Below, one piece after another: positions 6,006-37,781 of a DNA stretch of 64,000 bases (positions are counted from its first letter, which is position 1; every line of letters starts with the position of its first letter). The notes beneath the pieces are model-generated. The model saw only the letters and a list, made by a program, of their open reading frames with translations, was not told the origin of the DNA and ran no database searches. Position numbers and translations under genes: made by a program. The stretch is from an uncultured Pseudomonadota bacterium. Its GTDB lineage: Bacteria > Myxococcota_A > UBA796 > SXON01. Location of the stretch: positions 1,224 to 65,223 of the forward strand of contig CAISIK010000061.1 of assembly GCA_903885375.1 (NCBI GenBank), written 5' to 3'.

Positions 6006-6076
6006 GGGCGTTTCATACCACAAGCGCGAGGACGTGGGCCCCGAACCTTGTTCGGGAAGCGTTCCGGGGCTACCCT

Positions 6077-13030: not shown

Positions 13031-13897
13031 TCAGTCGGTGGTCATCGTCTGGCGCAGCGTGGCCAGCTTCTGGAGGATGGCGCGGTTCGCGGCGAGCGGC
13101 CCACCGGCCAGCCACGCCGGCCGCTCGGGCAGGGTGCCGCGGGGGTGGTCGTTGAGCTGCACCCACGCCGGCCGGCCGCGACGGGCCGCCTCGATCATCC
13201 GCCGCGCGTGGCGCAGCTCCTCCGGCTGGGCGTGGTCGGGGAAGGCCTGCAGGCGCGCATAGCCGCAGCCCAACGCGCCGACATGGGCCACGGCCTCCCG
13301 GGGCGGCCACCAGTCCTCGTCGTCGAGGGAATGGCCCGCTGCCGGCACCATGCGGGTGCCGCCCGCGGTGATGATCTCCCGGTCGCAGGGGCCCTCCCAG
13401 TCGAGGAGCCAGGGCACCGGCAGCTCGGGCCACCGAGCGAGCGCCCCGACGGCGGCGGCGAGGCCGAGCGAGAGGGAGAGCACGCCCACCCGGCCGGTGC
13501 AGTCGGGGCGGGCGGCGAGGGCGCGGATCGCCACGCGCACGTCGTCCTGGTGCTCCGGTCCGCCGAAGTCCTCCTCCCCCCAGCTGTCGCCCCGCCCCGC
13601 GGGGTCGTGCACGAGCACGGCGAAGCCGAGCCGGGCGAGCTCGGCGGCGCTGACGACCGCCGCGTTGCCGGTGAGCGCCGCCACGCCCTGGTGGATGGCC
13701 GGGGACACTACCAGGCCCGGCCAGCTGGTGCCCGACGCCGGGCGCACGAGCACGGCGGCGAGCCGGTATCCAGCGGTGGAGTGGAGCTCTGCCGGTTCGG
13801 TGCGCACTTCGGCAGCGCGGGACAGGTCACGTAGGCGGCGCAGGGCGGCGGTGCCGCGCCAGGCGAGGGCGGGAAGGGAGGGGGGAGCGAGCTTCAT
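13031..13897 (-). CDS. Alpha/beta-fold hydrolase
   Basis: ATG 13897 (MKLAPPSL) forms an ATGA overlap with the upstream stop. Nucleophile-elbow-like SLSLG, and the HDPAGRGDS context typical of dienelactone-hydrolase or prolyl-oligopeptidase-like esterases. The track ORF extension to 14293 is Arg-rich and overlaps the CotH gene. Confidence 0.65.
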   Translation of the reverse strand: MKLAPPSLPALAWRGTAALRRLRDLSRAAEVRTEPAELHSTAGYRLAAVLVRPASGTSWPGLVVSPAIHQGVAALTGNAAVVSAAELARLGFAVLVHDPAGRGDSWGEEDFGGPEHQDDVRVAIRALAARPDCTGRVGVLSLSLGLAAAVGALARWPELPVPWLLDWEGPCDREIITAGGTRMVPAAGHSLDDEDWWPPREAVAHVGALGCGYARLQAFPDHAQPEELRHARRMIEAARRGRPAWVQLNDHPRGTLPERPAWLAGGPLAANRAILQKLATLRQTMTTD

Positions 13898-15105
13898 TCG
13901 GGTTGGCTGGCGAGCCAGTCGTCGAGGTAGCTTCGCCGAAGGGGGACGAAGGCCTCGAGGCTGTCGAGGTAGGCGACGTAGGTTGCGTCGTCGTAGTAGC
14001 GCAGCGGGTCGTCCGCGCCGACCACTTCCGTCTGCGCGCGCATGTCTGCATACGCGGAGCGCATCTCGTCGCTCCCGTAGAGGGCGGTGAGCTCCCGGAG
14101 CGCATCGAGGTAGCCGGCCCAGCCCGCGTCGGTGGCGAGGAGCGCCGTCATGTGCGGGGTGCCGTCGGGGTAGTAGAGCAGGTCGGGCGGCGTGTCGTAG
14201 GCCACCCAGTCGAAGGTGCCGTCCTTGTCCCAGGGCAGCCAGAGGAAGCCCTGCTCCGGATGGTCGTAGAGGTAGTAGTTGTGTCCGCAGCACCAGTAGC
14301 CGTCACCATCGGGGAGGATGGCCTCGGCGGCCCACTCACGGAGCCACTCGTCGCTGTCGCCGAGGGCCGTGAAGCGGACCGGGTCGTAGCTCGACCAGAA
14401 GGCTTCGATCCGCGTGGTGTCGATGTCCTCGTCCTCGTGGTTGTCGAGCACGTAGCCGTACTTCCAGAGGTCTCCGTCTGCGTTGTCGTCGCCGAAGTTG
14501 CGTTCGAGGAACTCCCGATCGAGCTCCTCCATGTGGGCGTAGAGGCCCTGCGTCTCGCCGTTCACGCGGAGCTCGGCGTTGTTCGTGCAGGTTCCGGCGA
14601 GTCCGGCCCGGTGCAGGAACCAGTTGGCGAGACGGTTCTTCAGCACGGTGGGCTCGTAGTAGGGGGCGTCGAACGCCACCTTGCGTTCGCCCTCGACGCG
14701 GGCGTCGGGGTCGACCTCGTTGAAGGCCACCACGAATTGCATCTTCTCGCCCACCCAGCAGCAGCCGTTGTTCCCCTTCAGGCGGATCATCGTGTCGGGG
14801 ACGACCTCGCCATCGATGCGCAGCTCGGTGACGGGGACATAGTCCTTGGTGCCGTCGGCCGTGCGCCACTCGCGTTGGAGGTGCCGCCAGTCGCCCTCCT
14901 CGATGGTCAGCTCGTAGAGCGGCATCCGGTCCTGCGCGAACAGCGTGCTGCAGCCGAACTCGTCCTTCGGGTCGTCGGGCGGGTCCTCCTCGCCGCCGCC
15001 CCCGCCGCCGGGGGCCTCCTCGGAGCCGGAGGTGTCCGTGCCTCCTCCGGCGCCGTCGCCCAGCGCGATCCCGTCGGGAGCGCAGCCGAGGAGGGCGAGC
15101 AGCAT
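13894..15105 (-). CDS. CotH-family protein (atypical protein-kinase fold), lipoprotein
   Basis: ATG 15105 (MLLALLGC lipobox) forms a TGATG overlap with the upstream stop. CotH blocks LKNRLANWF, VNGETQGLYAHMEELDREFLERNF, GDLWKYGY, GHNYYLYDHPEQGFLWLPWDKDGTF. Confidence 0.8.
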   Translation of the reverse strand: MLLALLGCAPDGIALGDGAGGGTDTSGSEEAPGGGGGGEEDPPDDPKDEFGCSTLFAQDRMPLYELTIEEGDWRHLQREWRTADGTKDYVPVTELRIDGEVVPDTMIRLKGNNGCCWVGEKMQFVVAFNEVDPDARVEGERKVAFDAPYYEPTVLKNRLANWFLHRAGLAGTCTNNAELRVNGETQGLYAHMEELDREFLERNFGDDNADGDLWKYGYVLDNHEDEDIDTTRIEAFWSSYDPVRFTALGDSDEWLREWAAEAILPDGDGYWCCGHNYYLYDHPEQGFLWLPWDKDGTFDWVAYDTPPDLLYYPDGTPHMTALLATDAGWAGYLDALRELTALYGSDEMRSAYADMRAQTEVVGADDPLRYYDDATYVAYLDSLEAFVPLRRSYLDDWLASQPE

Positions 15106-16400
15106 CAAAGCGGCACGCTCGTGGCGTGAACCGCCATGCGGTAGAACGACCCCTGACCGCCCGTGCTCCCGTCGGAAGCCACGACCGTCACGGTGTAGCT
15201 GCCCGCCGCCAGCTTCGTCTCCGACTTCACCTCGGGGTCGGTTCCGCCCGACGCCGTGCCCGTGAGGTGGCCGCCCGGCCCGTCGACCTCCACGGTCGCT
15301 TCGAGCAGGCTGCCGTAGTTCAGCGCGCCGAAGGCGATGGCCACGTAGCTGTCCTCGGTGAGGGTGAAGGTGTACCAGTCCTGGTCGCCCGCCGGATCGA
15401 TCCGGCCCTCCACGAAGTCGGCCACCCAGGAGCCCGCGTCGGGGTACTGGTCCTCCAGGGTCAGCGTCATCGGCCCGTCGGCGGAGTCGTTGGGCTCGCG
15501 CTCGCGGCTGTTGCCGTAGCCCTCCTCGCTGTTGGCCACGAACACCCACATGCCGGCGGCGGGGCCGAGCGCGCCGGTCGTGTCGGACACGCCGAGGATG
15601 TAGGTGCTGTCGGGCGGCGAGATGTACTGGCGGAAGTCGGTCTCGGCCACGGTATCGGCCTGCAGGACGGGCGTGCCCTCGCTGTCGTAGAGCGTGAGCG
15701 CCGGCGTGTAGGGGCTGGACTCGATGTGGTGGGCGCGGGCGAAGGTGAGCGCGCCGTCGCTGTGGGCGAGCTCGAGGAGGACGTAGTCCGTGTCGCCGGC
15801 CTCGTCCGCTTGGACGGGGAGCGCGTACCAGCTGTTGTCGTTGTCCATCGCCGCGCCGTTGGCGAGGCGGAGGAGGCTGTCGGGCTCCTCCGGCGGGCCG
15901 GACGGACCGAGGATCTGCACGGTGTAGTCGGTGTCCTCGACGTCACGCTCCGCGCCCTCGAAGGTGCCCTTGTCCACGATACGGACGAAGTAACTGCCCG
16001 CTTCGGGGAAGAAGCCGAAGCAGACGGTGTCGTAGGTACCCACATCGCCCACGGGGTGGTCATCCTCCCAGGCGATGCGCGTCATCGCGGAGTCGTAGAC
16101 CTCCACGACCGTGTCGAGGCTGTCCTCCGAGGCGTTCTCGTCGGCGTTGACGACCTGCACCCGGAAGTGCTGCCCCGCGGACACACCGGTCACCTTGAAC
16201 CAGTCCGCGTCGTCGGCATCGAGCGTGCCGGACTCCTCCGTTTCCCACGCGAGCTCCCGCGCGGTTTCCGGCGTGTCTGCATCCTCCGGGGCGCTGGTGT
16301 CGGTGGAGGGAGTGCCGGTGTCATCGTCGGCGTAATGCGGGCCCTCCTCGGCGCCGGTGCACGCGGCGAGGAGGAGCGGGAGGAACGCGGTGCGGTGCAT
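15105..16400 (-). CDS. Lipoprotein with three pre-peptidase C-terminal (PPC)-like modules
   Basis: 431 aa; lipobox LLLAAC; acidic D/T/G-rich linker. Three repeats carry PPC-like signatures (DADWFKV..GSYFVRI; DTDYVLL..STYILGV; EPNDS..DQDWYTF..GSYTVTV). Confidence 0.7.
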   Translation of the reverse strand: MHRTAFLPLLLAACTGAEEGPHYADDDTGTPSTDTSAPEDADTPETARELAWETEESGTLDADDADWFKVTGVSAGQHFRVQVVNADENASEDSLDTVVEVYDSAMTRIAWEDDHPVGDVGTYDTVCFGFFPEAGSYFVRIVDKGTFEGAERDVEDTDYTVQILGPSGPPEEPDSLLRLANGAAMDNDNSWYALPVQADEAGDTDYVLLELAHSDGALTFARAHHIESSPYTPALTLYDSEGTPVLQADTVAETDFRQYISPPDSTYILGVSDTTGALGPAAGMWVFVANSEEGYGNSREREPNDSADGPMTLTLEDQYPDAGSWVADFVEGRIDPAGDQDWYTFTLTEDSYVAIAFGALNYGSLLEATVEVDGPGGHLTGTASGGTDPEVKSETKLAAGSYTVTVVASDGSTGGQGSFYRMAVHATSVPL

Positions 16401-17715: not shown

Positions 17716-18762
17716 ATGTCGCTCCGCTTGCGCTCATCCTCCTCCGACGGCGCCCGTCGCCGCTCCGAGCGTCTCACCGCAGAAGAAGAGAAGATGATTG
17801 CCCGTGAAATTCGGAAGGCCGAGCAGGTGGCCCGCGAGTGCGTGGCCGGCATCGATGCCGCCGAGAACATCCTCCGTCGTCGTCCGGACCGTGCGGAGCG
17901 CACCCGCGCCGGCGCGGTCGATCGCCTCGAGGAGGCGGTTCGCGCCGTGGCCAAGGCCGCCCGCAAGGAAGACGATCTGAAGACCTACGCTCGCAAGGCG
18001 CAGGGCGCCTGGCAGCAGGCCGAGGAGCTCCGCTGGCGCCTCGCGATGAGCGGTCGCCGCATCGCCCACGGCGAGGCCCGCAAGCTGGCCGGCCCGTTCA
18101 TGGATGAGGAGGATCTCGTCCAGGAGGGCTACATCGGCCTCCTCCGCGCGGCCAAGCGCTTCGACCCGGACCGGGGCATCCGCTTCTCCACCTACGCGCG
18201 TTGGTGGGTTCGCGCGCAGATGACGCGGGCGATCGACCACACCGGCCGGCCCGTGCGCCTGCCCGGCTGCGCGGTGGAGCAGACCCGCAACCTCCGCAAG
18301 GCCATGAAGCGCTTCGAGGCCGCTGGCATCGAGTACAACGTGGCCGACCTCGCCGAAGAGGTGGGCATCGACAAGGAGCGCGCCGAGCTGCTCCTCTCGC
18401 AGGGCAACACCATCTCGCTCGAGCAGCCGGTGGATGACGGCCCCCGTCCGCGCCCCCTGGAGCGATTCCTCTCGGATGAGGGCGCCGTTTCGCCCGACGA
18501 CGAGAGCATCCAGATCCAGGAGCTTTCGCGCATGACGAAGGCCTTCCACAACGTGCTCAGCGAGCGCCAGCGCTTCGTGCTGACCCGCCGCTACGGCCTC
18601 GAGGATGGTGAGTTCCGCACCCTCTCCGAGGTGGGCAAGGAGATGGGCCTCTCGCGCGAGCGCGTGCGCCAGATCGAGCGCGAGGCCCTCATCCGCCTGC
18701 GCGACCAGTCCGGCATCCGCGACCTTCGTGGCATGCCGCTCCCGGAGCCGGGCGAGGCCTGA
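17716..18762 (+). CDS. RNA polymerase sigma factor, sigma-70 family (regions 1.2, 2, 3, 4)
   Basis: 348 aa; AGGTGA RBS. Region 2 DLVQEGYIGLLRAAKRFDPDRGIRFSTYARWWVRAQMTRAI; region 4 TLSEVGKEMGLSRERVRQIEREALIRLR. About 65 aa are inserted between region 1.2 (LTAEEEKMIAREIRKAE) and region 2.1. Confidence 0.9.
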   Translation: MSLRLRSSSSDGARRRSERLTAEEEKMIAREIRKAEQVARECVAGIDAAENILRRRPDRAERTRAGAVDRLEEAVRAVAKAARKEDDLKTYARKAQGAWQQAEELRWRLAMSGRRIAHGEARKLAGPFMDEEDLVQEGYIGLLRAAKRFDPDRGIRFSTYARWWVRAQMTRAIDHTGRPVRLPGCAVEQTRNLRKAMKRFEAAGIEYNVADLAEEVGIDKERAELLLSQGNTISLEQPVDDGPRPRPLERFLSDEGAVSPDDESIQIQELSRMTKAFHNVLSERQRFVLTRRYGLEDGEFRTLSEVGKEMGLSRERVRQIEREALIRLRDQSGIRDLRGMPLPEPGEA

Positions 18763-18780: not shown

Positions 18781-19206
18781 CTAGTGAAACTGGTCGTCGG
18801 CGGCGGCTTCGTCGGGGTCGGGCTCGGCCGCGATGGGTGAGCCGTGATGCAGGACGAGACGCCAGCCGCCGGGCCGGCGAAGGAACAGGTGCGTGACGGC
18901 CACGCGGCCGATCACCTCCTCGTCGCCCGCCACGCGGATGTCCTCGATGTTGTGCACCCGGGCGATGTCGCCGAGGATCTGCACCACCACATCCACCACC
19001 ACGAACCGCATGGGCACGCCCGTGGCGAAGATGTTGGCCCAGGCCTCCATCACCGCGGCGTGGCCATATACGGGCTCCCAGCCGGGGTGGATGCAGGCAT
19101 CCCCATCGGTTCCGCTCCAGCAGGCCGCCATTCCCTCGATGTCCCGCCGTTCGAACGTGCGGTAGAAGCGATCGTTGGCAGCGAGCACGGCGGCGCGATC
19201 GTCCAT
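18781..19206 (-). CDS. NTF2/SnoaL-like (DUF4440-type) protein
   Basis: 141 aa; NDRFYRTFERRDIEGMAACW ... HPGWEPVYG pattern typical of the SnoaL/NTF2-like fold. Confidence 0.65.
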   Translation of the reverse strand: MDDRAAVLAANDRFYRTFERRDIEGMAACWSGTDGDACIHPGWEPVYGHAAVMEAWANIFATGVPMRFVVVDVVVQILGDIARVHNIEDIRVAGDEEVIGRVAVTHLFLRRPGGWRLVLHHGSPIAAEPDPDEAAADDQFH

Positions 19207-19246: not shown

Positions 19247-20254
19247 TCAGCCGCCGCAGCCGACCTCGATCACCCGGAGCACGTTGCCGCCGTAAGCGGC
19301 GTGCACCTCCTCGGCCGACCAGCCCAGACGCAGGAGCGCTTCGGTGAGATTGGGCAGCTTTTCGGCGCTGTCGAGGTCCGACGGGTAGAGCGCGAACCCC
19401 TCCCAGTCCGTGCCGAGCGCGCAGTGGCGCACCCCCACGGTTCGGCGGATGTGGTCGAGGTGGCGGGCCGCCGTGACCGCGCCGCCGCCCCCGATGAAGG
19501 GGGTCACGAAGATGATGCCCACGACACCGTCGGTGTCGGCGACGGCGCGGAGCACGTCGTCGTCGACGCCGCGGGGGGACTGGTGAACGCCGGTGCAGCC
19601 GGTGTGGCTCACGATGACGGGCCGGCGCGCTCGGCGACACACTTCGAGCACGGCGGCCTTCCCGAGGTGGGCGGCGTCGACGAGGATGCCGAGGCGCCAC
19701 AGCTCCTCCACGAGCTCCACCCCGAAGCCGGTGAGGCCGGCCTGGTTGCTCGCTCCCCACCCCACCATCGGGCGCGCTGCCTCGTTGGCGGTGAAGTGCA
19801 CGAGGCCCACGTAGCGGAGACCCTTCTCGCGCATGGTCGGCAGCTCGTCGAGCCGACCGTGCAGGCCGTGCGCGCCTTCGAGGCCCGCGAAGCAGGCGAT
19901 GCGGCCGGCCGCCCGTGCCTCGCGGATGGCGCCGGCGCTGCCGCAGAGGGCCATCTCGCCGGGGTTCGCGAGCACGTCGGCCGCGAGCTGATCGAGGTCC
20001 TGGTGGATGGCGGCCGGGCCGGTGGTGCGACGGAGCGGGTTGGTGACGACGCCGAAGGCGATGGCGCCCACGTTGCCCTCCCGGAGGCGGGGGAGGTCGC
20101 AGTGCCCCATCAGCGGCGCGCCGGGGAGCGGGTTGGGACGATGGCGCTTGGCGAGGTCCCACCCGAGGAAGTACCGGGTGAGGAGCAGATCGCAGTGGAG
20201 GTCGACGATGAGCGCCGAGTGGTGCACCGCGAGGGCCTCTTCGGACAGCTTCAT
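19247..20254 (-). CDS. Membrane dipeptidase (peptidase M19)
   Basis: 335 aa; HSALIVDLHCDLL metal-binding N-terminus; LVHFTANE, VSHTG and ALGTDWEG blocks of renal-dipeptidase-family enzymes. Confidence 0.85.
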   Translation of the reverse strand: MKLSEEALAVHHSALIVDLHCDLLLTRYFLGWDLAKRHRPNPLPGAPLMGHCDLPRLREGNVGAIAFGVVTNPLRRTTGPAAIHQDLDQLAADVLANPGEMALCGSAGAIREARAAGRIACFAGLEGAHGLHGRLDELPTMREKGLRYVGLVHFTANEAARPMVGWGASNQAGLTGFGVELVEELWRLGILVDAAHLGKAAVLEVCRRARRPVIVSHTGCTGVHQSPRGVDDDVLRAVADTDGVVGIIFVTPFIGGGGAVTAARHLDHIRRTVGVRHCALGTDWEGFALYPSDLDSAEKLPNLTEALLRLGWSAEEVHAAYGGNVLRVIEVGCGG

Positions 20255-20301: not shown

Positions 20302-21327
20302 ATGCACCCCCTCGACGCCCTGGCCCGCATCGATGCGGCCACCCTCGGCACGGCGCTCCCGCCCGCCCACGCGCGCGCCGCCTGGGCGCTGGCGATCGAG
20401 GGCGCGCGCTCCGTGCGCACCGACCTGGTACTCCCGGGGCCAGCGCCGCGCGCGGTGGCGCTGGTGGCGAGCGCCAACGTCTTCACGGCGCCGATCGAGT
20501 GGGTGTGGGCGCTCTCGGCGCGCGGAGTGCCGGTGGTGCTGAAGTCCGCGCGCGGGCTCGCCGCCGTGGGCGAGGCGCTGGCCGCGGCCTTCCCCAGCGT
20601 GGAAGCCCGCGACTGGCGCGGCGGTGATCTCGACGCCGAAGCCGCTGCGCTCGCGGAGTGCGATGTGGCCATGGTTTTCGGCGCGGCGGAGACGATCGGT
20701 CGGGTGCGCGCCCGCTCGCCCATCCCGGTGCTCGGCTTCGGCCCCCGCTTCGGGGTGGCGCTCGTGGACGGAGTGGGCGCTGACCAGGCGGCCGGCCTCG
20801 CGCGGGACCACGCGCTCTACGATGGGCGGGGGTGCATGTCGCCGGCGGCGGTGTTCTCGGCGCAGGCGGTGGAGCTGGATCGTCTCGCGGCCGCGCTGGT
20901 CGAGGCCGACGAACGCCTGCCGGCGGGGGAGTTCACGCCCTCGGAGGCGGCGGGGCGGCGGTCCCTGGCCATGCTCGCGCGCATCGAAGGCCGTGTGCTG
21001 GAGGTGGGGAGCTGGGTGGTGGCGGTCCTGCCCGCCGCGCACGTGCGGCCGCGGGGGCTGCCGCGGGTGATCACGGTGCACGAGGGCGTGGCCCCTGCGG
21101 CCGCCGTGGCGCCGTGGCGCGAGGAGCTGGGCACCGTGGCGCTGCCGGGCGCCACCGAGTCGGACCTGCGCGCAGAGCCGGCGCTCGCGGAGGCGCTCGG
21201 CCTTGAGGGCCTGCCGCCGGCGCGGGTGTGTGCGGTCGGGGAAATGCAGCGCCCGCCCGGGGGGCGCCGCCTGCACGACGGCGTGAGCGTGCTGCCCGCG
21301 CTGTGGCATGCGGCGGCGAACCGCTAA
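20302..21327 (+). CDS. LuxC-like acyl-CoA (acyl-protein) reductase
   Basis: 341 aa; aldehyde-dehydrogenase-like fold with candidate catalytic Cys in ALYDGRGCMSPAAVF. The assignment is strengthened by the LuxE-like gene next door. Confidence 0.65.
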   Translation: MHPLDALARIDAATLGTALPPAHARAAWALAIEGARSVRTDLVLPGPAPRAVALVASANVFTAPIEWVWALSARGVPVVLKSARGLAAVGEALAAAFPSVEARDWRGGDLDAEAAALAECDVAMVFGAAETIGRVRARSPIPVLGFGPRFGVALVDGVGADQAAGLARDHALYDGRGCMSPAAVFSAQAVELDRLAAALVEADERLPAGEFTPSEAAGRRSLAMLARIEGRVLEVGSWVVAVLPAAHVRPRGLPRVITVHEGVAPAAAVAPWREELGTVALPGATESDLRAEPALAEALGLEGLPPARVCAVGEMQRPPGGRRLHDGVSVLPALWHAAANR

Positions 21328-21932
21328 CGGGGCGGCGGCCAGCCGAGGAGCGCCGCGGCCACGAGGGCGAAGCGCTCGCGGTCGGCCTCGGCCACGTCGG
21401 CGCCCACCAGCAGGGTGCCGGAGCCGAGCAGGTCCACGGCGGCGAGCAGGCGCTCGCCCTCGCGGATGGCCACGCCGGCCAGGACGGGGCCGGCGAGACC
21501 GCCCGGCTGGCGCACCGGCTCTACCGCGAGGGTGCGCCCCGCGAGGGCGAGCTCGCCGCGCACTTCCACGCTCCGGCCGAGCCGCAGCACCAGCCCCTCC
21601 GCGGTGCACGTGAGCGCATCCTCGAGCACCGACATCCCGCCGGGCCCGGGCGGGCGCGCGCGGCCGGCCTCGCAGCGCACCACCCGCGGCGTGCCCGTGG
21701 GGCCCACGAGCTCGAACCCGAAGCCCACGACCTCCGGCACGAGGCCGGTACCGGTGGCGTCCGGTCCGGCGCTCCACCCGCCCGTGGGCCGCTCCACCCG
21801 GTAGGGGCCGATGTGGTAGCCGGGCGCGAGATCGCCGCGGCCCGTGGCCGCGAAGACCACGGCCGGCTCGGGGAAGCCGGCGGGAGGCGCCATGCGCGCG
21901 GCGCACCCCGCGAGGAGGAGGATCGCCAGCAT
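21324..21932 (-). CDS. Hypothetical lipoprotein
   Basis: ATG 21932 (MLAILLLAGC lipobox), 2 nt after the LuxE-like stop; an alternative GTG at 21938 would overlap it. No known motif. Its 3' end overlaps the convergent luxC-like stop. Confidence 0.5.
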   Translation of the reverse strand: MLAILLLAGCAARMAPPAGFPEPAVVFAATGRGDLAPGYHIGPYRVERPTGGWSAGPDATGTGLVPEVVGFGFELVGPTGTPRVVRCEAGRARPPGPGGMSVLEDALTCTAEGLVLRLGRSVEVRGELALAGRTLAVEPVRQPGGLAGPVLAGVAIREGERLLAAVDLLGSGTLLVGADVAEADRERFALVAAALLGWPPPR

Positions 21933-21934
21933 GT

Positions 21935-22930
21935 TCACCGATCCGAGGCGGCGTCGAGCTCGCGGACGGCGGCCTCGGCGCGCAGCGAGCACCCGCGGAG
22001 CTCGGCGCCTTCCAGCCGGCCGAGGAGCTCCACGCGATCGCCGGCCCGGGAGGGGAGCACCCGCCCGAGGTCCTGCGTTTCGATCGCGAGCACGCTGCCG
22101 GCGTTCGCGAGGTCCCAGAAGCGGAGGACGCCCGGTTCATCGTCGAGGAGGCGGCCGGAGATCGGGTCGGCAGCGCGGACGCGGAGCCAGGGCGGCGCGT
22201 AGAAGACGCCCGGCACCTCGCCACAGGCGACGGGCTGGCTCCAGAGCTGCGAGGAGAGCTCGCTCATTCCGTATTCGCCCACCACCCGCGGGCTGCCCAG
22301 CCGCTTCGGGAGGGCGCGGTAGAGCCCCGGCGCGTCGAGCCTGACCTCGCGGCCCTTGAACCCGCCGGTGACCATCACGACGGACTCGCCGCTGAGCAGC
22401 GCCGAACCGGGCAGGGCAAGGAGCGCATCGAGCGCGAAGGCGGTCGCCGCGAGGAACACGGGCCCCTTCCGGGCGGCGGCGCGCAGGCGCTCCCAGGTGT
22501 CGGGGTGCACCTGGCCGTCGGTGAACGCCGCATCCACCGTGCCGAGGAGGTGCACCATGTGCCCGAGCGAGCTGTCGGGCTCGGTGGGGCAGAGGCTCAC
22601 AATGCGCCGGGGCAGGTTCGGGATGATCCGCCGCGCGTGCAGCACGGAGCCGAGGTCGTAGAGCGCCGTGTGCCGCACTCGTCGGGCCCCACGGACCTGC
22701 CCGGTGGTGCCGCTCGTGCGGAAGGTGCGGTCGGTTGGCATCGGGGGGAGCGGGCCGAGATCGACCTCCTTGAACACCTGCACGGGCACGGGCGCCTCGC
22801 CGATGGCGGCGAGCGGCCCGCCGCGCGCCACGTTCTCCGCGACCGCGGCCGCCAGCAGCTCGCCGAAGTTGCCGAGGCCGGAGAGCATGAAGCCCGAGAT
22901 GGCCTCCTCGGCGGGGCTCAGCGTTGCCAT
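21935..22930 (-). CDS. LuxE-like acyl-protein synthetase (adenylate-forming)
   Basis: 331 aa from ATG 22930 (MATLSPAEE). Adenylation motif FRTSGTTG and a GEYGMSELSSQ block. The track ORF extension to 23488 is Arg-rich and antisense-like. Confidence 0.7.
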   Translation of the reverse strand: MATLSPAEEAISGFMLSGLGNFGELLAAAVAENVARGGPLAAIGEAPVPVQVFKEVDLGPLPPMPTDRTFRTSGTTGQVRGARRVRHTALYDLGSVLHARRIIPNLPRRIVSLCPTEPDSSLGHMVHLLGTVDAAFTDGQVHPDTWERLRAAARKGPVFLAATAFALDALLALPGSALLSGESVVMVTGGFKGREVRLDAPGLYRALPKRLGSPRVVGEYGMSELSSQLWSQPVACGEVPGVFYAPPWLRVRAADPISGRLLDDEPGVLRFWDLANAGSVLAIETQDLGRVLPSRAGDRVELLGRLEGAELRGCSLRAEAAVRELDAASDR

Positions 22931-24168
22931 TGGAGGACCTCGCGGAGGGCCTCGACGAAGCCGCCTGCCTGTTCGGCCGTGAGGCAGTACGGCGGGGTGA
23001 TGCCGAGCGCGTCGGCGCGTTCGCCGCAGGGCAGAACGAGGTAGCCGCGGTCGAGCAGGTCGTGTGTGACCTGCAGGGCGTTGGGCACGTGGACACCCAG
23101 CATCAGGCCGGCGCCGGAAACGGCGCTGACGCCGGCCACGGCACGCAGGGCGGCGGCCAGAGAGGCGCCGAGCTCGGCCACGGTGGGCGCGAGGCGGTCG
23201 AGCTCTTCCAGCGCCGCGAGCGCGGCCGCGCAGCCCACCGGATGGCCGAGAAAGGTCTGGGTGTGGATGGCTGCGCCAGTGCTGGCCTGCCAGGCATCCA
23301 TCGCCGCGGCGGTGCCGAGGCAGGCCGACACCGGGAAGCCGCCGCCGAGCGCCTTGCCGAGGCACAGGAGGTCGGGTGCCACCTCGGCCGCGAGGAAGCG
23401 GCCGGTGCGGCCGCACCCGCTGTAGATCTCGTCGTGGATGACGAGCGCGCCGGCCGCGTGGGCGCGCTCGTGGAGGGCCGCGAGCCACCCCGATGGCGGC
23501 GCGCGCATGCCGCCCCGCCCCTGGATCGGCTCCACGAGCACGGCGGCCACGCCCTCGAGGTCGGGCAGGGGCCCGCCGAAGGGCGCCCAGCTCACGTGCG
23601 TGCCGAGCAGGCCCGCGAAGGGCTCGCGCATGGTGTGGCGGAGGTAGCCGAGGGCGGCGAGCGGGCCGAAGGCGAGTCCGTGGTAGCCGCCCTCGAAGGC
23701 GACGAGGCGGCTCCGGCCGGTGGCCACCACCGCGGTCTTCACCGCCGCATCCACCGCATCGCTCCCCGAGGTGCCGAGGATCACGCGGTCCATGCCGGTG
23801 CGGGCGGCGAGCGCCTCCATCAGCTCGATTCGGCGCGGGTCGGGGAACGCATCACCCATGGCGTGGAGGAGCTGGCCGGACTGCGCGGCCACCGCCTCCA
23901 CCACGCGGGGGTTGCGATGGCCGACGGCGGCCACCCCGAAGCCCGCGGTGAGGTCGACGAAGACGTTGCCATCGGCATCGCGCACGTTGGCGCCGAGCGC
24001 CTCCGCCCACACAATGGGGTCGGTGTCAGCCGCGCCGATCTGCAGCGCCCGGCGCGCCCGGCGGGCGGTGATGGCGGGGCACTCCCGGGCGGCGAGGCGG
24101 TCGACCCAGGCGCGGCTGGCGGGACCGGGGATGGCGGTGACCACCGCAGGGAGGCTGGAGCCGAACAT
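22918..24168 (-). CDS. Class-III PLP-dependent aminotransferase (GabT/omega-transaminase-like)
   Basis: 416 aa; blocks DLTAGFGVAAVGHRNPRV, GSDAVDAAVK, LVAFEGGYHG, IHDEIYSGCGRTGRF. Its 3' end overlaps the LuxE-like start by 13 nt. Confidence 0.85.
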   Translation of the reverse strand: MFGSSLPAVVTAIPGPASRAWVDRLAARECPAITARRARRALQIGAADTDPIVWAEALGANVRDADGNVFVDLTAGFGVAAVGHRNPRVVEAVAAQSGQLLHAMGDAFPDPRRIELMEALAARTGMDRVILGTSGSDAVDAAVKTAVVATGRSRLVAFEGGYHGLAFGPLAALGYLRHTMREPFAGLLGTHVSWAPFGGPLPDLEGVAAVLVEPIQGRGGMRAPPSGWLAALHERAHAAGALVIHDEIYSGCGRTGRFLAAEVAPDLLCLGKALGGGFPVSACLGTAAAMDAWQASTGAAIHTQTFLGHPVGCAAALAALEELDRLAPTVAELGASLAAALRAVAGVSAVSGAGLMLGVHVPNALQVTHDLLDRGYLVLPCGERADALGITPPYCLTAEQAGGFVEALREVLQWQR

Positions 24169-24287
24169 GGCCGCCCACCTATCCGTGGCGACGCGATCCG
24201 CGGCGACCGGATCGCACTCCCGAGGTGGGGCGAACGCGGATCGCCCACCCGCCTGCCCATCTGCGCCCGGAATGCTACCTTGATCCC

Positions 24288-25715
24288 ATGAGCTGGCTGT
24301 GGTTTCTGCTCGGCTGCAAGGAGGCCGTCACCGAGGTGATCCCCGCCCAGGATGGCGCGCTCACGCTGCACCTCGTGAACCCCACGACCTGCTCCTGGTG
24401 TGATGCCTTCGCCGAGGTGGATGAGGTGCGCCTCGACGTGGAGCAGGACGGCGAGGTGATCGCGAGCGACACCTTCGCCTGGCCGGCCGAATCCCTTTCG
24501 TTGCCCGCGCTGGAGGGCTTCGGCGTGGTTCGCATCCGGATGTATGGCGTCGGGGAGGGCTTCGTGGTGAGCTACGGGCAGACGCCGGAGCTCGCCCTCG
24601 GCCCGGGCGAGGAGCTCGAAGCCGCCCTGCTCTTTGCGCCGGTGAACCGCGCCCTGCCGCTCAGCTCGCCGATGCGCGCAGCCCGCCGCGACGCCGCGGT
24701 CGTCACGCTGCGGGATGGTCGGGTGCTCGTGGCCGGCGGGTACGTGAACGAGGGCAGCGCCCTGACCGCGAGCGTGGAGCTCTACGACCCGGGCAGCGGC
24801 GTATTTGCCGATGCGCCCGAGGCCCTGCCCGTGCCGCTGGCCGGCGCCCAGGTGGCCGCGTTCGACTCCGGCGAGCGCTTCTTCGTGGGCGGGGAGTCGG
24901 CGGCTGACGGCACCCCCAGCGCCGAGGCGGTGGACTACGTGGAGGAGGCGGGCACGATGGAGTCGGTGCGGCCGATGAACCGGGCGCGATCGGGACATTG
25001 TGTGTCGGCCTTCCGGGGCGACCAGGCGGTGGTGCTCGGCGGTCACGACGACGACGTTGCGCGTGGCGAGCTCCTGCGCGTGAACGCCGACGACGGGGAG
25101 TGGATATTCAAGGAGCAGCCGTTCGACGACCTCGACGAGGTGAGGGTGACGGGCTGCGCCCCGCTCGCCGATGGTCGCACGGCCGTGCAGGGCCTCGGCG
25201 CGGCCAGCACGGGCATCTGGACGTACTCGCAGGACACCGTGGGCACAGTGGAGCCCGAGAACGCCTTCCTCGCCACCCCAGCCGACGACCCCGGGGCGGG
25301 CGCGGCCTTCGTGCTCGGCGCGAGCATCGTGGCGCTCGCCGATGGGGATGCGTGGTTCGGCGGCGGCGTGGACCCCACGAGCGGCCAGCTCGCTGCAGCC
25401 CGGGAGCTTCGCGCCGCGAGCGTGCGTTTCGACCCTGCGGACGCCCTCCCGCGCCCGCGAGCCTGGGGCGACCTCGAGCGGCTCGACGAGGCGGGCAACG
25501 TGGCCTGGGGGTGCGGGTGGCGGGATGCCTTCCACAACAGCCCGGTGTCGAGCGTGGAGCTCTTCAACGTGGAGACGGGAACGCTCGGCCCCACCGTGGA
25601 GCTGGTGGACGAGCGCCGGGGCTGCGCGCTCGCGGTCCTGCCCGATGGCGCCGTGCTCGTGGTCGGAGGGGCGCTCGCCGCCTCGGCCGAGCTGATCGTG
25701 CCCTACACCCGCTGA
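24288..25715 (+). CDS. Kelch-repeat lipoprotein
   Basis: ATG 24288 (MSWLWFLLGC lipobox). Repeated Kelch-like units such as AAVVTLRDGRVLVAGGY...VELYDP and HCVSAFRGDQAVVLGGH. Confidence 0.7.
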   Translation: MSWLWFLLGCKEAVTEVIPAQDGALTLHLVNPTTCSWCDAFAEVDEVRLDVEQDGEVIASDTFAWPAESLSLPALEGFGVVRIRMYGVGEGFVVSYGQTPELALGPGEELEAALLFAPVNRALPLSSPMRAARRDAAVVTLRDGRVLVAGGYVNEGSALTASVELYDPGSGVFADAPEALPVPLAGAQVAAFDSGERFFVGGESAADGTPSAEAVDYVEEAGTMESVRPMNRARSGHCVSAFRGDQAVVLGGHDDDVARGELLRVNADDGEWIFKEQPFDDLDEVRVTGCAPLADGRTAVQGLGAASTGIWTYSQDTVGTVEPENAFLATPADDPGAGAAFVLGASIVALADGDAWFGGGVDPTSGQLAAARELRAASVRFDPADALPRPRAWGDLERLDEAGNVAWGCGWRDAFHNSPVSSVELFNVETGTLGPTVELVDERRGCALAVLPDGAVLVVGGALAASAELIVPYTR

Positions 25716-25719
25716 ATGC

Positions 25720-27159
25720 TCAGGCGGGGCGGCTGGCCTCGATGGCGGCGATGAGCTTCTTGTGCAGGCCGCCGAAGCCGCCGTTGCTCAGCACCGCGAC
25801 GACATCCCAGGGCAGCGCGTTGGCGGCCACCACCGCCACGATCTCCTCGACGGAGGGGTAGGTGAACGCCTCTTGCCCGCGCGCCCGCAACGCCTGCACC
25901 AGCTCGGCGGCGCTGAAGCGCTCCTCGTCGGCGATGCGGGACTGGTCGTGCGCCCCGGCGATGATCACCACGTCGGCGGCGCCGAAGGCTTCGGCGTAGG
26001 CATCCTGGAACACCTTGCGGCGGCTCGTGGCGCTGCGCGGCTCGAAGATGGTCCACATCCGGCGCTTTCCGAAGCGCAGGCGCAGGGCCTCGAGCGTGAC
26101 CTTCACGGCGGTGGGGTGGTGCGCGAAGTCATCGAGCACGGTGATGTGGCGCGGCTCGCCGATGACCTCCTGGCGCCGCTTCACCCCGCCGAAGCTCCGG
26201 AAGCCGGGGGCGAGGGATTCGGCGGTGAAGCCCTCGCGCTCCAGCGCGGCCACGCCGGCCACCTGGTTGTAGAGGTTGTGCTCGCCCACGAGGACGCTCT
26301 CGAAGCGCCCCCAGAGGTTGCCCTCGTGCAGCACGGCGAAGGTCTGGATGCCGCGCTCGGTGTCGACCTTCTCGATGCGCCCATCCCAGCTCTGACCCAC
26401 GCCGTACCGGCGGATCTCGCAGCGGGCATCGAGGCAGACGTCGCGCACGTTGTCGTGGTCCCACCGGGCCACGACGCACCCATCGTCGGGCACGATGTCC
26501 ACGAGGCGGCGGAAGCTCTGTTTTACGTGGTCGAGGTCGGTGTAGATGTCGGCGTGATCGAACTCCACCGAGGTGATGATCGCGGTGGTGGGGCGGTAGT
26601 GGAGGAACTTCGGCCCCTTGTCGAAGAAGGCGGTGTCGTATTCATCGCCCTCGATGACGAACTGCGCGCCGGAGCCGGTGCGGGCGGTGCGATCGAAGTT
26701 CTTGGCGAGCCCGCCGATGAGGAAGCCCGGGTCCTTGCCGGCGGCATCGACCAGCTGGGCGATCAGCGCGGTGGTGGTGGTCTTGCCGTGGGTGCCCGCG
26801 CACACGATGTTCCGGCGGGAGGCGAGGAAACGTGCGCCGAGCAGCTGCGGCATGGAGGCGTAGGTGAGATCGCTCGCGAGCAGCGCCTGGGCCTCGGCGT
26901 ACTCCGCGCGGATCACGTTGCCCACCACGACGAGATCGGGGTTGTGTTTGAGGTTTTCGGCGTTGTAGCCGATCATCACCTCGATACCGAGCGAGGCGAG
27001 GTAGTCGGACATCGGCGGGTACACGCCGGTATCACTCCCGGTCACGGTGTAGCCGGCATCCTTGAGCATGCCGGCGAAGGCCGCCATGGCGGTGCCACCG
27101 ATACCCATGATGTGGACGGAGCGGACGTCGTCGGGGAGGGGGCCGGCGAGGAGCGGCAT
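25720..27159 (-). CDS. mpl: UDP-N-acetylmuramate:L-Ala-gamma-D-Glu-meso-DAP ligase (murein peptide ligase)
   Basis: 479 aa from ATG 27159. Mur-ligase motifs HIMGIGGTAMAAFAGML and GTHGKTTTTAL, with an Mpl-like overall layout. Confidence 0.85.
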   Translation of the reverse strand: MPLLAGPLPDDVRSVHIMGIGGTAMAAFAGMLKDAGYTVTGSDTGVYPPMSDYLASLGIEVMIGYNAENLKHNPDLVVVGNVIRAEYAEAQALLASDLTYASMPQLLGARFLASRRNIVCAGTHGKTTTTALIAQLVDAAGKDPGFLIGGLAKNFDRTARTGSGAQFVIEGDEYDTAFFDKGPKFLHYRPTTAIITSVEFDHADIYTDLDHVKQSFRRLVDIVPDDGCVVARWDHDNVRDVCLDARCEIRRYGVGQSWDGRIEKVDTERGIQTFAVLHEGNLWGRFESVLVGEHNLYNQVAGVAALEREGFTAESLAPGFRSFGGVKRRQEVIGEPRHITVLDDFAHHPTAVKVTLEALRLRFGKRRMWTIFEPRSATSRRKVFQDAYAEAFGAADVVIIAGAHDQSRIADEERFSAAELVQALRARGQEAFTYPSVEEIVAVVAANALPWDVVAVLSNGGFGGLHKKLIAAIEASRPA

Positions 27160-27232
27160 GGGGAAGGACCGGGGAGGGGAGAGGCGGGAGAGCGGCGGGG
27201 CCGGGAAGATAACCGGGGGATATGGCTCGGGC

Positions 27233-27853
27233 GTGATCCACATCTTCGTTCGGGTGCCCGAGCCCGGCACCGTCAAGACCCGCCTCATTCCCCTGCTCGG
27301 CGCCTCGGGGGCGGCCCGCCTCGCCGCCGCCATGGCCGGCGATGCGGTGGAGCTCGTCCGCGAGTCGCGCCTGCCGTTCCGCGTGGTGCTCTCCGGCCCG
27401 ATCGATCACCCTTGGGTACGCACGCTCGACTGCGAGGTGGAGGCGCAGGCCGAAGGCGACCTCGGCGCGCGCCTCGCCCACGCGCTCCGCGACGGCGGAG
27501 TGGCCATCGGCAGCGATGCGCCCACCCTGCCCGTGAACCTGCTGCTCGAAGCACACGCATCCACCGCGGACGTGGTGCTCGCACCCGCGTTCGACGGGGG
27601 CTTCACCCTCGTGGGAACGCAGGAGCCGGAGGACCTCTTCGACCTCGTGCCCTGGTCCGCGCCCGACACGTTCGCGCGGCAGCACCGGCGTGCGCTCGAC
27701 CTCGGCCGCAGCGTGCGGGTGCTGCCCTTCTGGTACGACGTGGACGACGCCGAGAGCCTCCGCTTCCTCGGCAACCATCTTTCGACGCTGCCCGAACGGG
27801 TGGCGGCGCGCACGCGCGGGTTCCTCGCCGGCTGGCGGGAGCGGTCGGCCTGA
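27233..27853 (+). CDS. DUF2064 / TIGR04282-type nucleotidyltransferase-like protein
   Basis: In-frame GTG 27233 chosen (VIHIFVRVPEPGTVKTRLIPLLG); the upstream part of the track ORF overlaps mpl. Also APAFDGGFTLVG motif. Confidence 0.6.
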   Translation: MIHIFVRVPEPGTVKTRLIPLLGASGAARLAAAMAGDAVELVRESRLPFRVVLSGPIDHPWVRTLDCEVEAQAEGDLGARLAHALRDGGVAIGSDAPTLPVNLLLEAHASTADVVLAPAFDGGFTLVGTQEPEDLFDLVPWSAPDTFARQHRRALDLGRSVRVLPFWYDVDDAESLRFLGNHLSTLPERVAARTRGFLAGWRERSA

Positions 27854-27859
27854 GCGGGT

Positions 27860-29419
27860 TCACGCCCCGGGGTGTTGCGCCAGCGCGACGAGCGCATCGA
27901 AGGCGGGCCCGTCGAGCACCACCGGCTCCTTGACCTGGGCTTCCGGCGCGCCTGCCGCCACCCGGGCGTCGCGCCACCGTTCCCAGGCGGACTCCGGCAG
28001 CGCGATGCAGGCGGGCGGGGCGTAGCGCCCCCCCTCTCGACGATCGGCGTACTCCACGTTGACCTCGGCGAGCGCGCGGTCGAAGGCGGCCGCCGATGGC
28101 GCCGCGGAGCCTTCGGGGAGCCCGAGCGCCACCCGGAGGTGCGGCACTTCCTCCCACACGATGCACGCGGAGACGTGCGTGGCCCCGGGAGCCGCGCGGG
28201 CGGTCGCGGCGAGCAGCTGCGCTTCGGTGACGCGCTCGCCCACGGCCGAGAGCTCGGCCGCCGCGCGACCCACGAAGACGAGCCGCGGGGTGCGCCCGGC
28301 GAAGCCGGTCACCCGCACGAGATCGCCCATGTCGTAGCGGAGGAGCCCGGCCTCGGTGCTCACGACGAGGCGGTAGGTGCGCCCCTCCTCGAGCTCCCAG
28401 GCCCAGCGGGGCGCGCCGCCCTCGTCGATGAACTCGAGGAGGTGGCCGTGCAGCCAGGCCACCGGGTCGCCATCATCGACGGGCACGCCGAAGTAGCCCT
28501 CCGAAGCGGAGAGCCCCGCCTCGCGGATGGGCACGTTCGCGCCGAGCGCCGCGGGAACCCGGGCGGCGAAGAAGGCGGCGGGGCCCCCGCGCCACACGTT
28601 CACGCGGCGGAGCGCCCAGGGCCAGGACGGATCGCCGGAGAGGCGGCGCCGCGGGAGCCGACGCTCGCCGGTGCGACGGAGGGTGCCGTCCGCGAGGTCG
28701 GCCACGAGCTCCTCCCACCACTGGTGGAGCCGCCGCGTGTAGAGCAGGATGGTGGAGGGGTTGGCGGCGGTCCAGCTCCGCACGTCGGCGGCCAGCGCGT
28801 GGCGGAGGATGGCGTACTGGCGCGTTTCGGCGTCGTCGAGGAGGTAGGCCGACCAGGGCACCGGAGCGCGCCACCGCACCCAGAAGGGCTGCTCGAGGAA
28901 CATGCGCCCGGTGTTGCTGCCGTAGGGCACGCCCCCCGCGGTGTGGCCGGCCACGGCGGGGGAGACGATGGAGAGGGCGCTGCCGCCGGCGAGCGCTTCG
29001 TCGTCGCGGAGGAGGCCGAGCACCCACAGCCGCTGCGCCGCTGACACGCTGTCGGACCAGGCGCGGGTGACGGGGATGCGCTTGGCCCGGCCGGTCGTGC
29101 CCGTCGTCTGGACGAGTTGGAGGACCGGCGAGGCGGTGAGCACGCCGCGCTCGCCGGCCTCCACGCGGTCGAGCCACGGGAGGAGCTCCGTGTGCGTGCG
29201 CACCGGCACGGCGGCCCGGAACGCCTCCGCCGACAGGCCCGGAGCGAGCCCGTGCTCCCGCCCGAAGGCGCTGCCGTACACCTCCGCGAGGATGGCCGCG
29301 AGTCGCGACCGTTGCGTGGCCTCGGGCTGCGCGAGCCCTCCTTCGAACGCCGCGACCGGCGCGCCGCCGAACGCGCGGAGCAGGCGGTACGGTCCGTTGC
29401 CTTCGTCGGGGAAGAACAC
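27860..29419 (-). CDS. GH3-family (auxin-responsive GH3-like) acyl-acid amido synthetase homologue
   Basis: 519 aa; GTG start. Adenylation motif VQTTGTTGRAKRIPVT and GH3-type length and layout. Confidence 0.8.
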   Translation of the reverse strand: MFFPDEGNGPYRLLRAFGGAPVAAFEGGLAQPEATQRSRLAAILAEVYGSAFGREHGLAPGLSAEAFRAAVPVRTHTELLPWLDRVEAGERGVLTASPVLQLVQTTGTTGRAKRIPVTRAWSDSVSAAQRLWVLGLLRDDEALAGGSALSIVSPAVAGHTAGGVPYGSNTGRMFLEQPFWVRWRAPVPWSAYLLDDAETRQYAILRHALAADVRSWTAANPSTILLYTRRLHQWWEELVADLADGTLRRTGERRLPRRRLSGDPSWPWALRRVNVWRGGPAAFFAARVPAALGANVPIREAGLSASEGYFGVPVDDGDPVAWLHGHLLEFIDEGGAPRWAWELEEGRTYRLVVSTEAGLLRYDMGDLVRVTGFAGRTPRLVFVGRAAAELSAVGERVTEAQLLAATARAAPGATHVSACIVWEEVPHLRVALGLPEGSAAPSAAAFDRALAEVNVEYADRREGGRYAPPACIALPESAWERWRDARVAAGAPEAQVKEPVVLDGPAFDALVALAQHPGA

Positions 29420-29484
29420 GCTCGCGGGGTAACTCTTGACGGTAGCGGGCGGAGGGCGGGTCCGTTAGCTTCGGCCCCTTCGGG

Positions 29485-31461: not shown

Positions 31462-31467
31462 CTCTTC

Positions 31468-32931: not shown

Positions 32932-32948
32932 GCGGACTGCGCCTTCTC

Positions 32949-37277: not shown

Positions 37278-37781
37278 TCAGATCAGGCTGCCGCCCGGGA
37301 TCGAGGCGGCCACATCCTCGGCCGTGAGGGTGGCGAGCCCGGCCAGCTCGGCGATGCGGTGGTTGGTGGCGCGCAGATCGCGCACCAGCTGCCGGCAGAC
37401 GAGCATGAGGAAGCGGGCGCCCAGCGGCGTGGAGGCTTCCGTGAGGCGCTGGAAGTCTTCCGCGGTGATCTCGAGCACGCGGGCTTCGGTGACGGCCCGG
37501 CAGGAAACGGCGCGCGTGCCCCCATCCAGGAGCGCGATCCCGCCGAAGATGGCGCCGCGCGAGAGCAGGCCGAGGCTGGTGCGGTTGCCACCCGGCAGGC
37601 GGCGGATGACCTCGACCTCGCCGCTGTAGAGCACGTAGGCGGCGCGGGCGCGTTCGGCCTGCTCGATGATCGTGCTCTCAGGCGGAAAGACCAGCGTGCG
37701 GCAGATGCCATCGAGCAGCGCGAGGTCGTGATCCGGGAACTCGGCGAAGTCGGGCAGGTTGCGGAGGGGAGAGGGGCTCAT
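37278..37781 (-). CDS. Stand-alone cNMP-binding domain protein (degenerate phosphate-binding cassette)
   Basis: 167 aa; CAP effector-domain pattern, but the cassette reads FGGIALLDGGTRAVS (Glu replaced by Gly). No HTH. ATGA overlap with the upstream gene. Confidence 0.7.
   Translation of the reverse strand: MSPSPLRNLPDFAEFPDHDLALLDGICRTLVFPPESTIIEQAERARAAYVLYSGEVEVIRRLPGGNRTSLGLLSRGAIFGGIALLDGGTRAVSCRAVTEARVLEITAEDFQRLTEASTPLGARFLMLVCRQLVRDLRATNHRIAELAGLATLTAEDVAASIPGGSLI

Follow-up and report, generated by a model that had tools for sequence, protein, structure and literature searches.

The window analysed here, a stretch of 64,000 nucleotides from an uncultured bacterium (assembly GCA_903885375.1, contig CAISIK010000061.1, positions 1,224 to 65,223), shows between positions 20302 and 24168 three genes which encode a LuxC-like acyl-thioester reductase, a LuxE-like ATP-dependent acyl-protein synthetase and a class III pyridoxal phosphate (PLP) enzyme. 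An earlier note on this DNA, drawn from the sequence alone, had suggested that this set could convert a carboxylic acid to an aldehyde and then to a primary amine. This is the reading that we favour, at a probability of about 0.55: the trio would act as one machine of the LuxEC type, independent of phosphopantetheine. The acid would be adenylated with ATP by the LuxE-like enzyme, and the acyl group would pass to Cys314 of the same enzyme, located on a flexible arm, which would hand it over to Cys178 of the LuxC-like reductase. The reductase would then free the aldehyde, probably with NADPH, and the class III PLP enzyme would transaminate it to the amine, probably inside a complex and with the aldehyde kept bound. 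Coenzyme A (CoA), acyl carrier protein (ACP) and a phosphopantetheinyl transferase would all be unneeded. We infer each of these chemical steps, their order, the cofactors and the amino donor from the homology to LuxC and LuxE, the conservation of mechanistic residues and the genetic coupling of the three genes, which includes fusions.

The gene encoding the LuxC-like reductase (20302-21327, plus strand) codes for a protein of 341 aa which matches the Pfam LuxC family (PF05893) in residues 107-334 with 52.6 bits, against a cut-off of 21. The same family was found in 56 of 56 LuxC-like homologues, which range from 290 to 380 aa and thus constitute a short LuxC subfamily. The sole sequence match of the protein in the PDB is LuxC of Photobacterium phosphoreum (7xc6_A), in which YDQQACFS, containing the catalytic Cys296, aligns on YDGRGCMS, cysteine on cysteine. 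This residue, Cys178 in the motif GRGCMSP, is kept in 59 of 59 LuxC-like members. Lys81, which sits in a K-P/S-A motif and is kept in 58 of the 59, resembles the cofactor-binding Lys of aldehyde dehydrogenases (ALDH) and may mark a putative cofactor site. The AF2 model of the protein (pLDDT 93) shows 7xc6_A as its best fold match (E 6.3e-16, TMq 0.72), five orders of magnitude ahead of the next ALDH, and generic ALDHs appear from 3.6e-11. By Pfam, fold match, sole PDB match and invariant Cys, the reductase is a LuxC-family member of the ALDH superfamily, as had been proposed in the earlier note, with a candidate catalytic Cys in GRGCMSP. The luminescence LuxC equivalog of NCBIfam, NF052251, is not reached (17.8 bits, cut-off 750).

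The LuxE-like protein, of 331 aa, is encoded on the minus strand (21935-22930). It shows the motif FRTSGTTG at residues 70-77, the further LuxE-like motifs GGFKGR and EYGMSELSSQ, and a C-terminal swinging arm, GR(305)...RGC(314)SL, 17 residues after which the protein ends. The Pfam AMP-binding family gave 16.7 bits for the window protein. Pfam LuxE is matched by 17 of 26 LuxE-like relatives at E<=0.01 (best 3.1e-8), and its cut-off is passed by the fusion protein P0298 (37 bits) and by LuxE of locus L089 (32.9 bits); the luminescence-specific LuxE model of NCBIfam is missed widely. A family profile built from the 26 relatives and run against all solved structures found LuxE (7xc6_E) at E 9.4e-15, the next match being at 0.025, and no PaaK was found in this search. 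In the profile alignment, KGCSL of LuxE lies on RGCSL of the family and the preceding VRRL on (K)GRL. Cys314 is aligned with LuxE Cys364 and is kept in 81 of 81 LuxE-like members. Arg305, also invariant, is aligned with LuxE Arg355 and lies nine residues N-terminal of the Cys, a spacing identical to that of LuxE. Lys192, in GGFKGR, is invariant as well, and 122 residues separate it from the Cys, versus 126 for LuxE Lys238. LuxE is devoid of the usual ANL C-terminal domain and carries the acyl group on Cys364 in a flexible TRxxKGCxLS segment, and both Lys238 and Arg355 are essential in it (PMC9157457). The AF2 model of the LuxE-like protein has a pLDDT of 87.7, with residues 313-321 below 50, which predicts a flexible arm, like that of LuxE. 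A fold search with this model gave generic ANL/PaaK-like matches; the absence of 7xc6_E from the list says little because only 118 of the 373 LuxE residues are modelled in 7XC6. Judged by profile and conserved residues, the protein is a distant LuxE relative, and its nearest characterised relative is LuxE, not PaaK.

The class III PLP enzyme, of 416 aa, is encoded by the first gene of the module (22918-24168, minus strand) and matches Pfam Aminotran_3 with 255 bits. No NCBIfam transaminase cut-off is reached, the best being ArgD with 239 bits versus 457, and eight relatives from the same clade likewise passed none. The nearest solved structures are ArgD and LysJ, followed by the putrescine aminotransferase YgjG (179-167 bits); no solved structure was found inside the clade. 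Lys272 aligns with the catalytic Schiff-base Lys of these three enzymes and is kept in 73 of 73 members. In the alignments to ArgD, LysJ and YgjG, Leu165 is found at the position of GabT Arg141 (HGRT to YHGL) and Arg218 at that of Glu211 (QGEGG to QGRGG), both being invariant in the 73 members. Gly389 is found at the position of Arg398 ((I/V)R(L/F)xPP to LGITPP), where the family shows Gly, Ala, Cys, Gln or Glu and never Arg. In GabT, we take Arg141 to bind the distal carboxylate of the substrate, Glu211 to act as the switch, and Arg398 to bind the alpha-carboxylate of glutamate or 2-oxoglutarate. The class III assignment of the earlier note stands, but its description of the enzyme as GabT-like is wrong, since the enzyme has kept neither canonical arginine nor the Glu switch; for the same reason, an aminotransferase activity is something we infer. 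Arg218 may replace Arg398 in the binding of the donor. The invariant Leu at the distal-carboxylate residue of ArgD, GabT and ornithine aminotransferase makes an aldehyde whose tail is neutral or hydrophobic more likely than an amino-acid semialdehyde, and would be compatible with an aliphatic aldehyde. An N-terminal motif unique to the family, ECPAITxRRxRRA, contains four arginines (R36, R37, R39 and R40) which are invariant in 73 of 73 members. An exhaustive clade search across 1.84 billion representatives found the Leu/Arg/no-Arg signature in about 115 of the 150 nearest 50%-identity representatives, with canonical Arg/Glu/Arg sequences only near the bottom of that list. By these residues, the enzyme belongs to a large unnamed class III clade with an apparently re-wired active site.

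Two relatives with the Leu/Arg signature were seen in loci containing no Lux genes. One of them (L093, 5060-6364) lies between the genes encoding a 2Fe-2S and a 4Fe-4S ferredoxin, and the other (L090, 6001-7257) overlaps a gene encoding a radical SAM protein of 216 aa.

The earlier note had proposed co-occurrence and synteny of the trio as a check, and the genes proved to be co-conserved as a functional unit. A genome scan with one genome per species gave 366 stretches encoding LuxE-like relatives. Locus comparisons refer to the best 80 of these, nearly all of them from Myxococcota or 'Deltaproteobacteria' metagenome-assembled genomes (MAGs), and adjacency counts refer only to loci with enough flank, 73 for the PLP gene and 67 for LuxC. 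The PLP gene is directly upstream of the LuxE-like gene and on the same strand in 67 of 73 loci, and divergent in four. The LuxC-like gene is directly downstream of the LuxE-like gene and on the same strand in 50 of 67; otherwise it is farther off (three loci), inverted (two loci, the nearest relatives of the window) or outside the flank (12 loci). One clade that lacks LuxC next to LuxE has the gene elsewhere in the same assembly. Called module genes typically overlap by 4 nt, and the PLP and LuxE genes overlap by 4-13 nt in most loci. Identity of the PLP enzyme across loci ranges from 50 to 84%. In L083, the trio stands alone amid unrelated genes.

All three pairwise fusions occur. LuxE and LuxC form a single uninterrupted reading frame in nine species, and the fusions of L053 and L048, which were read through, show both cysteine motifs intact. 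Fusions of the PLP enzyme to LuxE have four representatives (P0298, P0304, P0305 and P0352), and LuxC is fused to the PLP enzyme in one protein (P0334), directly after a LuxE gene that passes Pfam. This gene arrangement, recurring in most of the 80 species-level loci, is far beyond chance, and functional coupling of the trio is strongly supported by co-conservation, stop/start overlaps, lone occurrence and fusions. The trio is found on contigs of more than 70% GC, as separate PLP, LuxE and LuxC genes on a contig of 48.5% GC (L092), and as a LuxE gene followed by a LuxC-PLP fusion on a contig of 66% GC (L089). These two contigs and that of P0352, with 33% GC, indicate that the module is not confined to Myxococcota.

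In the last of these contigs (L088, 4759-8224, 33% GC), the gene encoding the PLP-LuxE fusion P0352 overlaps a gene encoding a glycosyltransferase of family 4 (GT4) and is divergent from one encoding a VLCAD-type acyl-CoA dehydrogenase, with no LuxC in view. Several MAG records with a high-GC, Myxococcota-syntenic locus (L008, L015, L017, L022, L048 and others) are labelled Klebsiella pneumoniae or Enterobacterales, labels which look wrong.

Several observations weigh against the acid-to-amine reading. With the arginines for glutamate or 2-oxoglutarate lost, the PLP enzyme may use another donor or may be no transaminase. With 341 residues, the LuxC-like protein falls about 135 short of the solved LuxC chain, which has 477. 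The designation LuxE-like, given in the earlier note, stands in that the family profile finds LuxE alone and Cys314 is kept throughout, but the window protein stays below the Pfam LuxE (PF04443) cut-off, with 17.8 bits versus 24.9. Lys192 is at most a candidate equivalent of Lys238, and a search of the middle-region fragment against LuxE gave noise only. LuxE is linked more tightly to the PLP gene than to LuxC. One clade (L023, L024, L026, L027 and the P0095 locus) has a gene encoding a KAS III-like protein (ACP_syn_III_C) in place of LuxC after LuxE, with no LuxC close by, so that the LuxE thioester may feed another acceptor, or the first step may be that of the PLP enzyme. Members of the PLP clade without Lux genes (L090 and L093) indicate, moreover, that the clade is not dedicated to the module.

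A different order of the same enzymes, which we consider rather unlikely, would place the PLP enzyme first: an amino acid would be made, such as an omega-amino acid from an oxo-acid, and LuxE and LuxC would reduce its carboxylate to an amino aldehyde, which may form an imine by cyclisation. The PLP-LuxE link, which is the tightest (67 of 73 adjacent), would fit this order, and so would the PLP-LuxE fusion (four representatives, given as the commonest), the persistence of the pair where LuxC is distant or absent, and the loci in which LuxE adjoins different genes, KAS III for example. However, the LuxC-PLP fusion fits a hand-over of the aldehyde from LuxC to the PLP enzyme, the analogous systems ArgBCD, PigE and TabE/TabA, described below, all transaminate last, and the loss of the Arg141 equivalent speaks against an amino acid as substrate of the PLP enzyme. 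It is improbable that this enzyme is instead an aminomutase, racemase or lyase acting on the aldehyde, in the manner of glutamyl-tRNA reductase and glutamate-1-semialdehyde (GSA) aminomutase. Racemases and mutases exist within class III, the PLP enzyme lacks the canonical arginines as well as the Glu switch, and four N-terminal arginines are invariant; GSA aminomutase lacks the two arginines and binds the carboxylate through an N-terminal Arg. Yet similarity peaks at ArgD, LysJ and YgjG (179-167 bits), GSA aminomutase gives a partial match of 117 bits, hemL is not among the top NCBIfam matches, and Arg218 is placed where the donor-binding role of Arg398 could be taken over.

A scheme like that of arginine and lysine biosynthesis, in which a protected amino acid (a dipeptide or an N-acyl-glutamate) would be converted to a semialdehyde and then to a protected diamino acid, with the M19 metallopeptidase encoded beside the trio removing the protection, has a still smaller chance of being right. 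The nearest characterised transaminases are those for acetylornithine and LysW-aminoadipate semialdehyde, and 24 of the 80 loci contain an M19 gene, in most cases directly behind LuxC or LuxE. Against this, an invariant Leu takes the place of the Arg binding the alpha-carboxylate of acetylornithine, most loci and the trio of other phyla have no M19, and the similarity to ArgD is generic and far under the family cut-off. Very improbable, finally, is the aldehyde as end product (for wax, alkane, alcohol, signalling or light) with the aminotransferase as a mere neighbour. LuxC and LuxE homologues free of luciferase are indeed known, for example from flagellin glycosylation islands, but the PLP enzyme is fused to LuxE or LuxC in several lineages, which makes this alternative unlikely, and its gene shares 4-13 nt with that of LuxE in most loci; neither luciferase nor decarbonylase nor alcohol-forming genes were found nearby in the window open reading frames (ORFs) scanned or in related loci. 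The catabolic direction, from amine to acid, was rejected on logic because ATP-dependent activation by LuxE has no role there.

The nearest solved relatives of the two Lux-like proteins are LuxC and LuxE of P. phosphoreum (PDB 7XC6). Both systems show an ANL enzyme without the usual C-terminal domain and an ALDH-fold reductase. In LuxC-LuxE, and presumably in the trio, the acyl group is carried on the C-terminal Cys arm of the ANL enzyme and then on the Cys of the reductase, and both cysteines, as well as LuxE Arg355, are conserved in the trio. In contrast to the luminescence system, the trio has no luxA, luxB or luxD, its sequence identity to LuxC and LuxE is about 20%, its proteins are shorter (331 versus 373 aa for LuxE and 341 versus 477 aa for LuxC), its NCBIfam equivalog scores are far below cut-off, and it comes with a linked or fused PLP enzyme. 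The chemistry of LuxC and LuxE is established for bioluminescence only. Carboxylic acid reductases (A-T-R) likewise reduce a free acid to the aldehyde with ATP and NADPH and use a swinging thiol, as is proposed for the trio, whose LuxE-LuxC fusions would be single-chain analogues of them. The thiol in the trio would be the own cysteine of the enzyme instead of phosphopantetheine, and the reductase has the ALDH fold, not that of a short-chain dehydrogenase/reductase (SDR).

Other systems share the later steps. ArgB/C/D and LysZ/Y/J follow the scheme of acid activation, reduction and class III transamination, with NADPH reduction via a Cys thioester as proposed for the trio, and contain the closest solved transaminases, ArgD and LysJ. 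Activation there is a phosphorylation, however, the reductase has a GAPDH-type fold, and the active-site arginines of the transaminase are lost in the trio. In PigE/TamH, a reductase is also physically joined to a class III transaminase, for the conversion of an activated acyl group to aldehyde and amine, and the PigE model of NCBIfam is among the better matches of the PLP enzyme (188 bits, cut-off 850). The reductase of PigE and TamH belongs to the SDR-type thioester reductases and works on a substrate bound to a carrier; it does not have the LuxC/ALDH fold, and LuxE-type activation is absent. In the biosynthesis of tambjamine BE-18591 in Streptomyces, TabE, a stand-alone ALDH-family reductase that clusters with LuxC, gives a fatty aldehyde, which the separate omega-transaminase TabA converts to the primary amine dodecylamine; TabE takes an acyl-ACP or acyl-CoA thioester, requires neither ATP nor a LuxE partner, and belongs to a secondary-metabolite cluster (bioRxiv 10.1101/2025.08.11.669332). 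The scheme of TabE/TabA is like that of the trio from the thioester reduction on, and acid activation is missing there. The flagellin glycosylation islands of Aeromonas and Enterobacteriaceae also contain uncharacterised LuxC and LuxE homologues without luciferase, which sit with ACP, FabG, a CoA ligase and glycosyltransferases; a conserved overlapping class III PLP enzyme is not described in them.

In the literature searched, no paper was found on a LuxE-LuxC-class III module or on LuxC or LuxE in Myxococcota. The earlier note knew of no characterised example of the combination, which holds for the full set, but a LuxC-type reductase with an omega-transaminase has a precedent in TabE/TabA. 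The acid-to-amine logic itself is already known (TabE/TabA, PigE, ArgBCD), and the LuxE-LuxC-class III version of it would be new. A wider claim, which we hold tentatively and at somewhat less than even odds, is that the trio represents a cross-phylum machine free of CoA, ACP and phosphopantetheine, sometimes in one chain, in which a LuxE-type self-thioesterifying adenylase, a minimal LuxC-type reductase and a re-wired PLP clade convert a free acid to a primary amine, the product being an unrecognised metabolite conserved in many uncultured Myxococcota. If the acid-to-amine reading is true, the trio would be a natural and widespread route from free acid to amine based on the rare LuxEC chemistry, so far tied to bioluminescence. 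The LuxE-LuxC fusions would be carboxylic acid reductases without the need for a phosphopantetheinyl transferase, attractive for biocatalysis, and a fusion with the transaminase would give a ready-made acid-to-amine cascade. The analysis also flags a large uncharacterised class III PLP clade with an unusual active site, and the trio would point to an amine metabolite under strong selection in many uncultured, mostly freshwater Myxococcota.

The window has a GC content of about 72%. Within the cluster, the minus strand contains, in order of transcription, the PLP gene, the LuxE-like gene and an ORF encoding a lipoprotein of 202 aa (21324-21932), and the LuxC-like gene converges on them. Read by base, the stop of the PLP gene at 22918 and the ATG of the LuxE-like gene at 22930 give an overlap of 13 nt, and a gap of 2 nt separates the LuxE-like stop (21935) from the lipoprotein ATG (21932). 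The TAA of the LuxC-like gene (21325-21327) overlaps tail-to-tail with the lipoprotein stop (21324-21326). Two genes flank the cluster divergently: an M19 metallopeptidase gene (19247-20254, minus strand, 335 aa; Pfam Peptidase_M19, 249.6 bits), separated by 47 nt from the LuxC-like gene, and a Kelch lipoprotein gene (24225-25715, plus strand; Pfam Kelch over cut-off), separated by 56 nt from the PLP gene. Downstream of the M19 gene, a gene on the same strand encodes an NTF2-like SnoaL_3/DUF4440 protein (18781-19206; Pfam SnoaL_3, 89 bits). The lipoboxes of both lipoproteins, LLAGC in the 202-aa protein and LLGC in the Kelch protein, are visible. The ORFs, both junctions, the motifs FRTSGTTG and GRGCMSP and the divergent flanking genes are thus as the earlier note had described them. 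The six ORFs from M19 to Kelch show a GC content of 0.90-0.96 at third codon positions (GC3) versus 0.49-0.59 at second positions (GC2), which is the pattern of real genes in genomes this GC-rich.

The 34 window ORFs scanned, a set that leaves out, for example, 46.7-52.1, 55.9-60.3 and 62.9-64 kb, gave no match to a luciferase or LuxD family, and the absence of luxAB and luxD reported in the earlier note was borne out to that extent; luxA, luxB and luxD were also absent among the called genes of related loci. A scan for promoters and terminators in 18.6-24.4 kb, uninformative at 75% GC, turned up none. The window and its two closest genome relatives (L001 and L003) have the LuxC-like gene in inverted orientation. 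Since this gene lies 47 nt from the divergent M19 start, both genes would need promoters in or around that spacer. In most lineages (L005, L010, L016 and others) LuxC is co-directional after LuxE, and the convergent layout is a local inversion common to the window, L001 and L003.

The lipoprotein ORF (GC3 0.96) shows no Pfam or NCBIfam family match, and no tblastn match to it was found in any of the 80 related loci. In L001, the closest genome locus, LuxC comes straight after LuxE and there is no lipoprotein gene. The lipoprotein is probably a lineage-specific insertion after the LuxE-like gene and not part of the module. The earlier note had regarded it as a partner, which was rejected since none of the related loci has a homologue, and the envelope product suggested there on its account loses its basis. 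The window M19 protein is without signal peptide, and in related loci the M19 gene is usually co-directional. A SnoaL-like gene follows M19 only in the closest relatives (L003, L004, L007, L008, L009 and L085), where it runs in the same direction as the module. The M19 and SnoaL-like genes are at most accessory to the module. The other conserved neighbours are genes encoding Mpl, a sigma factor (70-98% identity), tryptophanyl-tRNA synthetase (TrpRS) and the Kelch protein, whose conservation reflects lineage synteny. A link to peptidoglycan recycling via Mpl and M19 was set aside, given that lineage synteny and the occurrence of the trio without both.

The neighbours of related loci gave no consistent substrate clue. 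Some lineages have M19 and SnoaL there, one clade KAS III, one an acyl-CoA dehydrogenase together with GT4, and one a major facilitator superfamily transporter alongside a B12-radical SAM protein. In the KAS III clade, the PLP gene is divergent and is preceded by a gene encoding a guanylate-cyclase-domain protein.

Elsewhere in the window, genes encoding an Mpl-type Mur ligase, a DUF2064 protein and a GH3-family adenylating enzyme (25720-29419) adjoin the module; this block is kept in several related loci (L001, L007 and L085), and bacterial GH3 proteins are poorly understood. The sigma-70-family protein (17716-18762, 348 aa) is 70-98% identical across related MAGs, far above its neighbours. 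Beside the TrpRS gene, the region 13894-16400 contains genes encoding a CotH-kinase-domain protein and a PPC-domain lipoprotein, and CotH genes recur in L085, in two copies. On the minus strand, an ORF of 1960 aa (28600-34482) runs over the GH3, kinase and M17 aminopeptidase genes and is an antisense high-GC artefact, not a gene. Genes for type II secretion (a GspC-like protein, the secretin GspD, the ATPase GspE and GspF) are found at 40076-46802, followed by ORFs of pseudopilin size. The region 6281-12966 contains two large AddAB-like helicase-nuclease genes, one encoding a UvrD-like protein with PD-(D/E)XK and the second another PD-(D/E)XK protein. Two cyclic-nucleotide-binding proteins and one adenylate/guanylate cyclase-domain protein are encoded at 5469-6023, 37278-37781 and 38295-39839.

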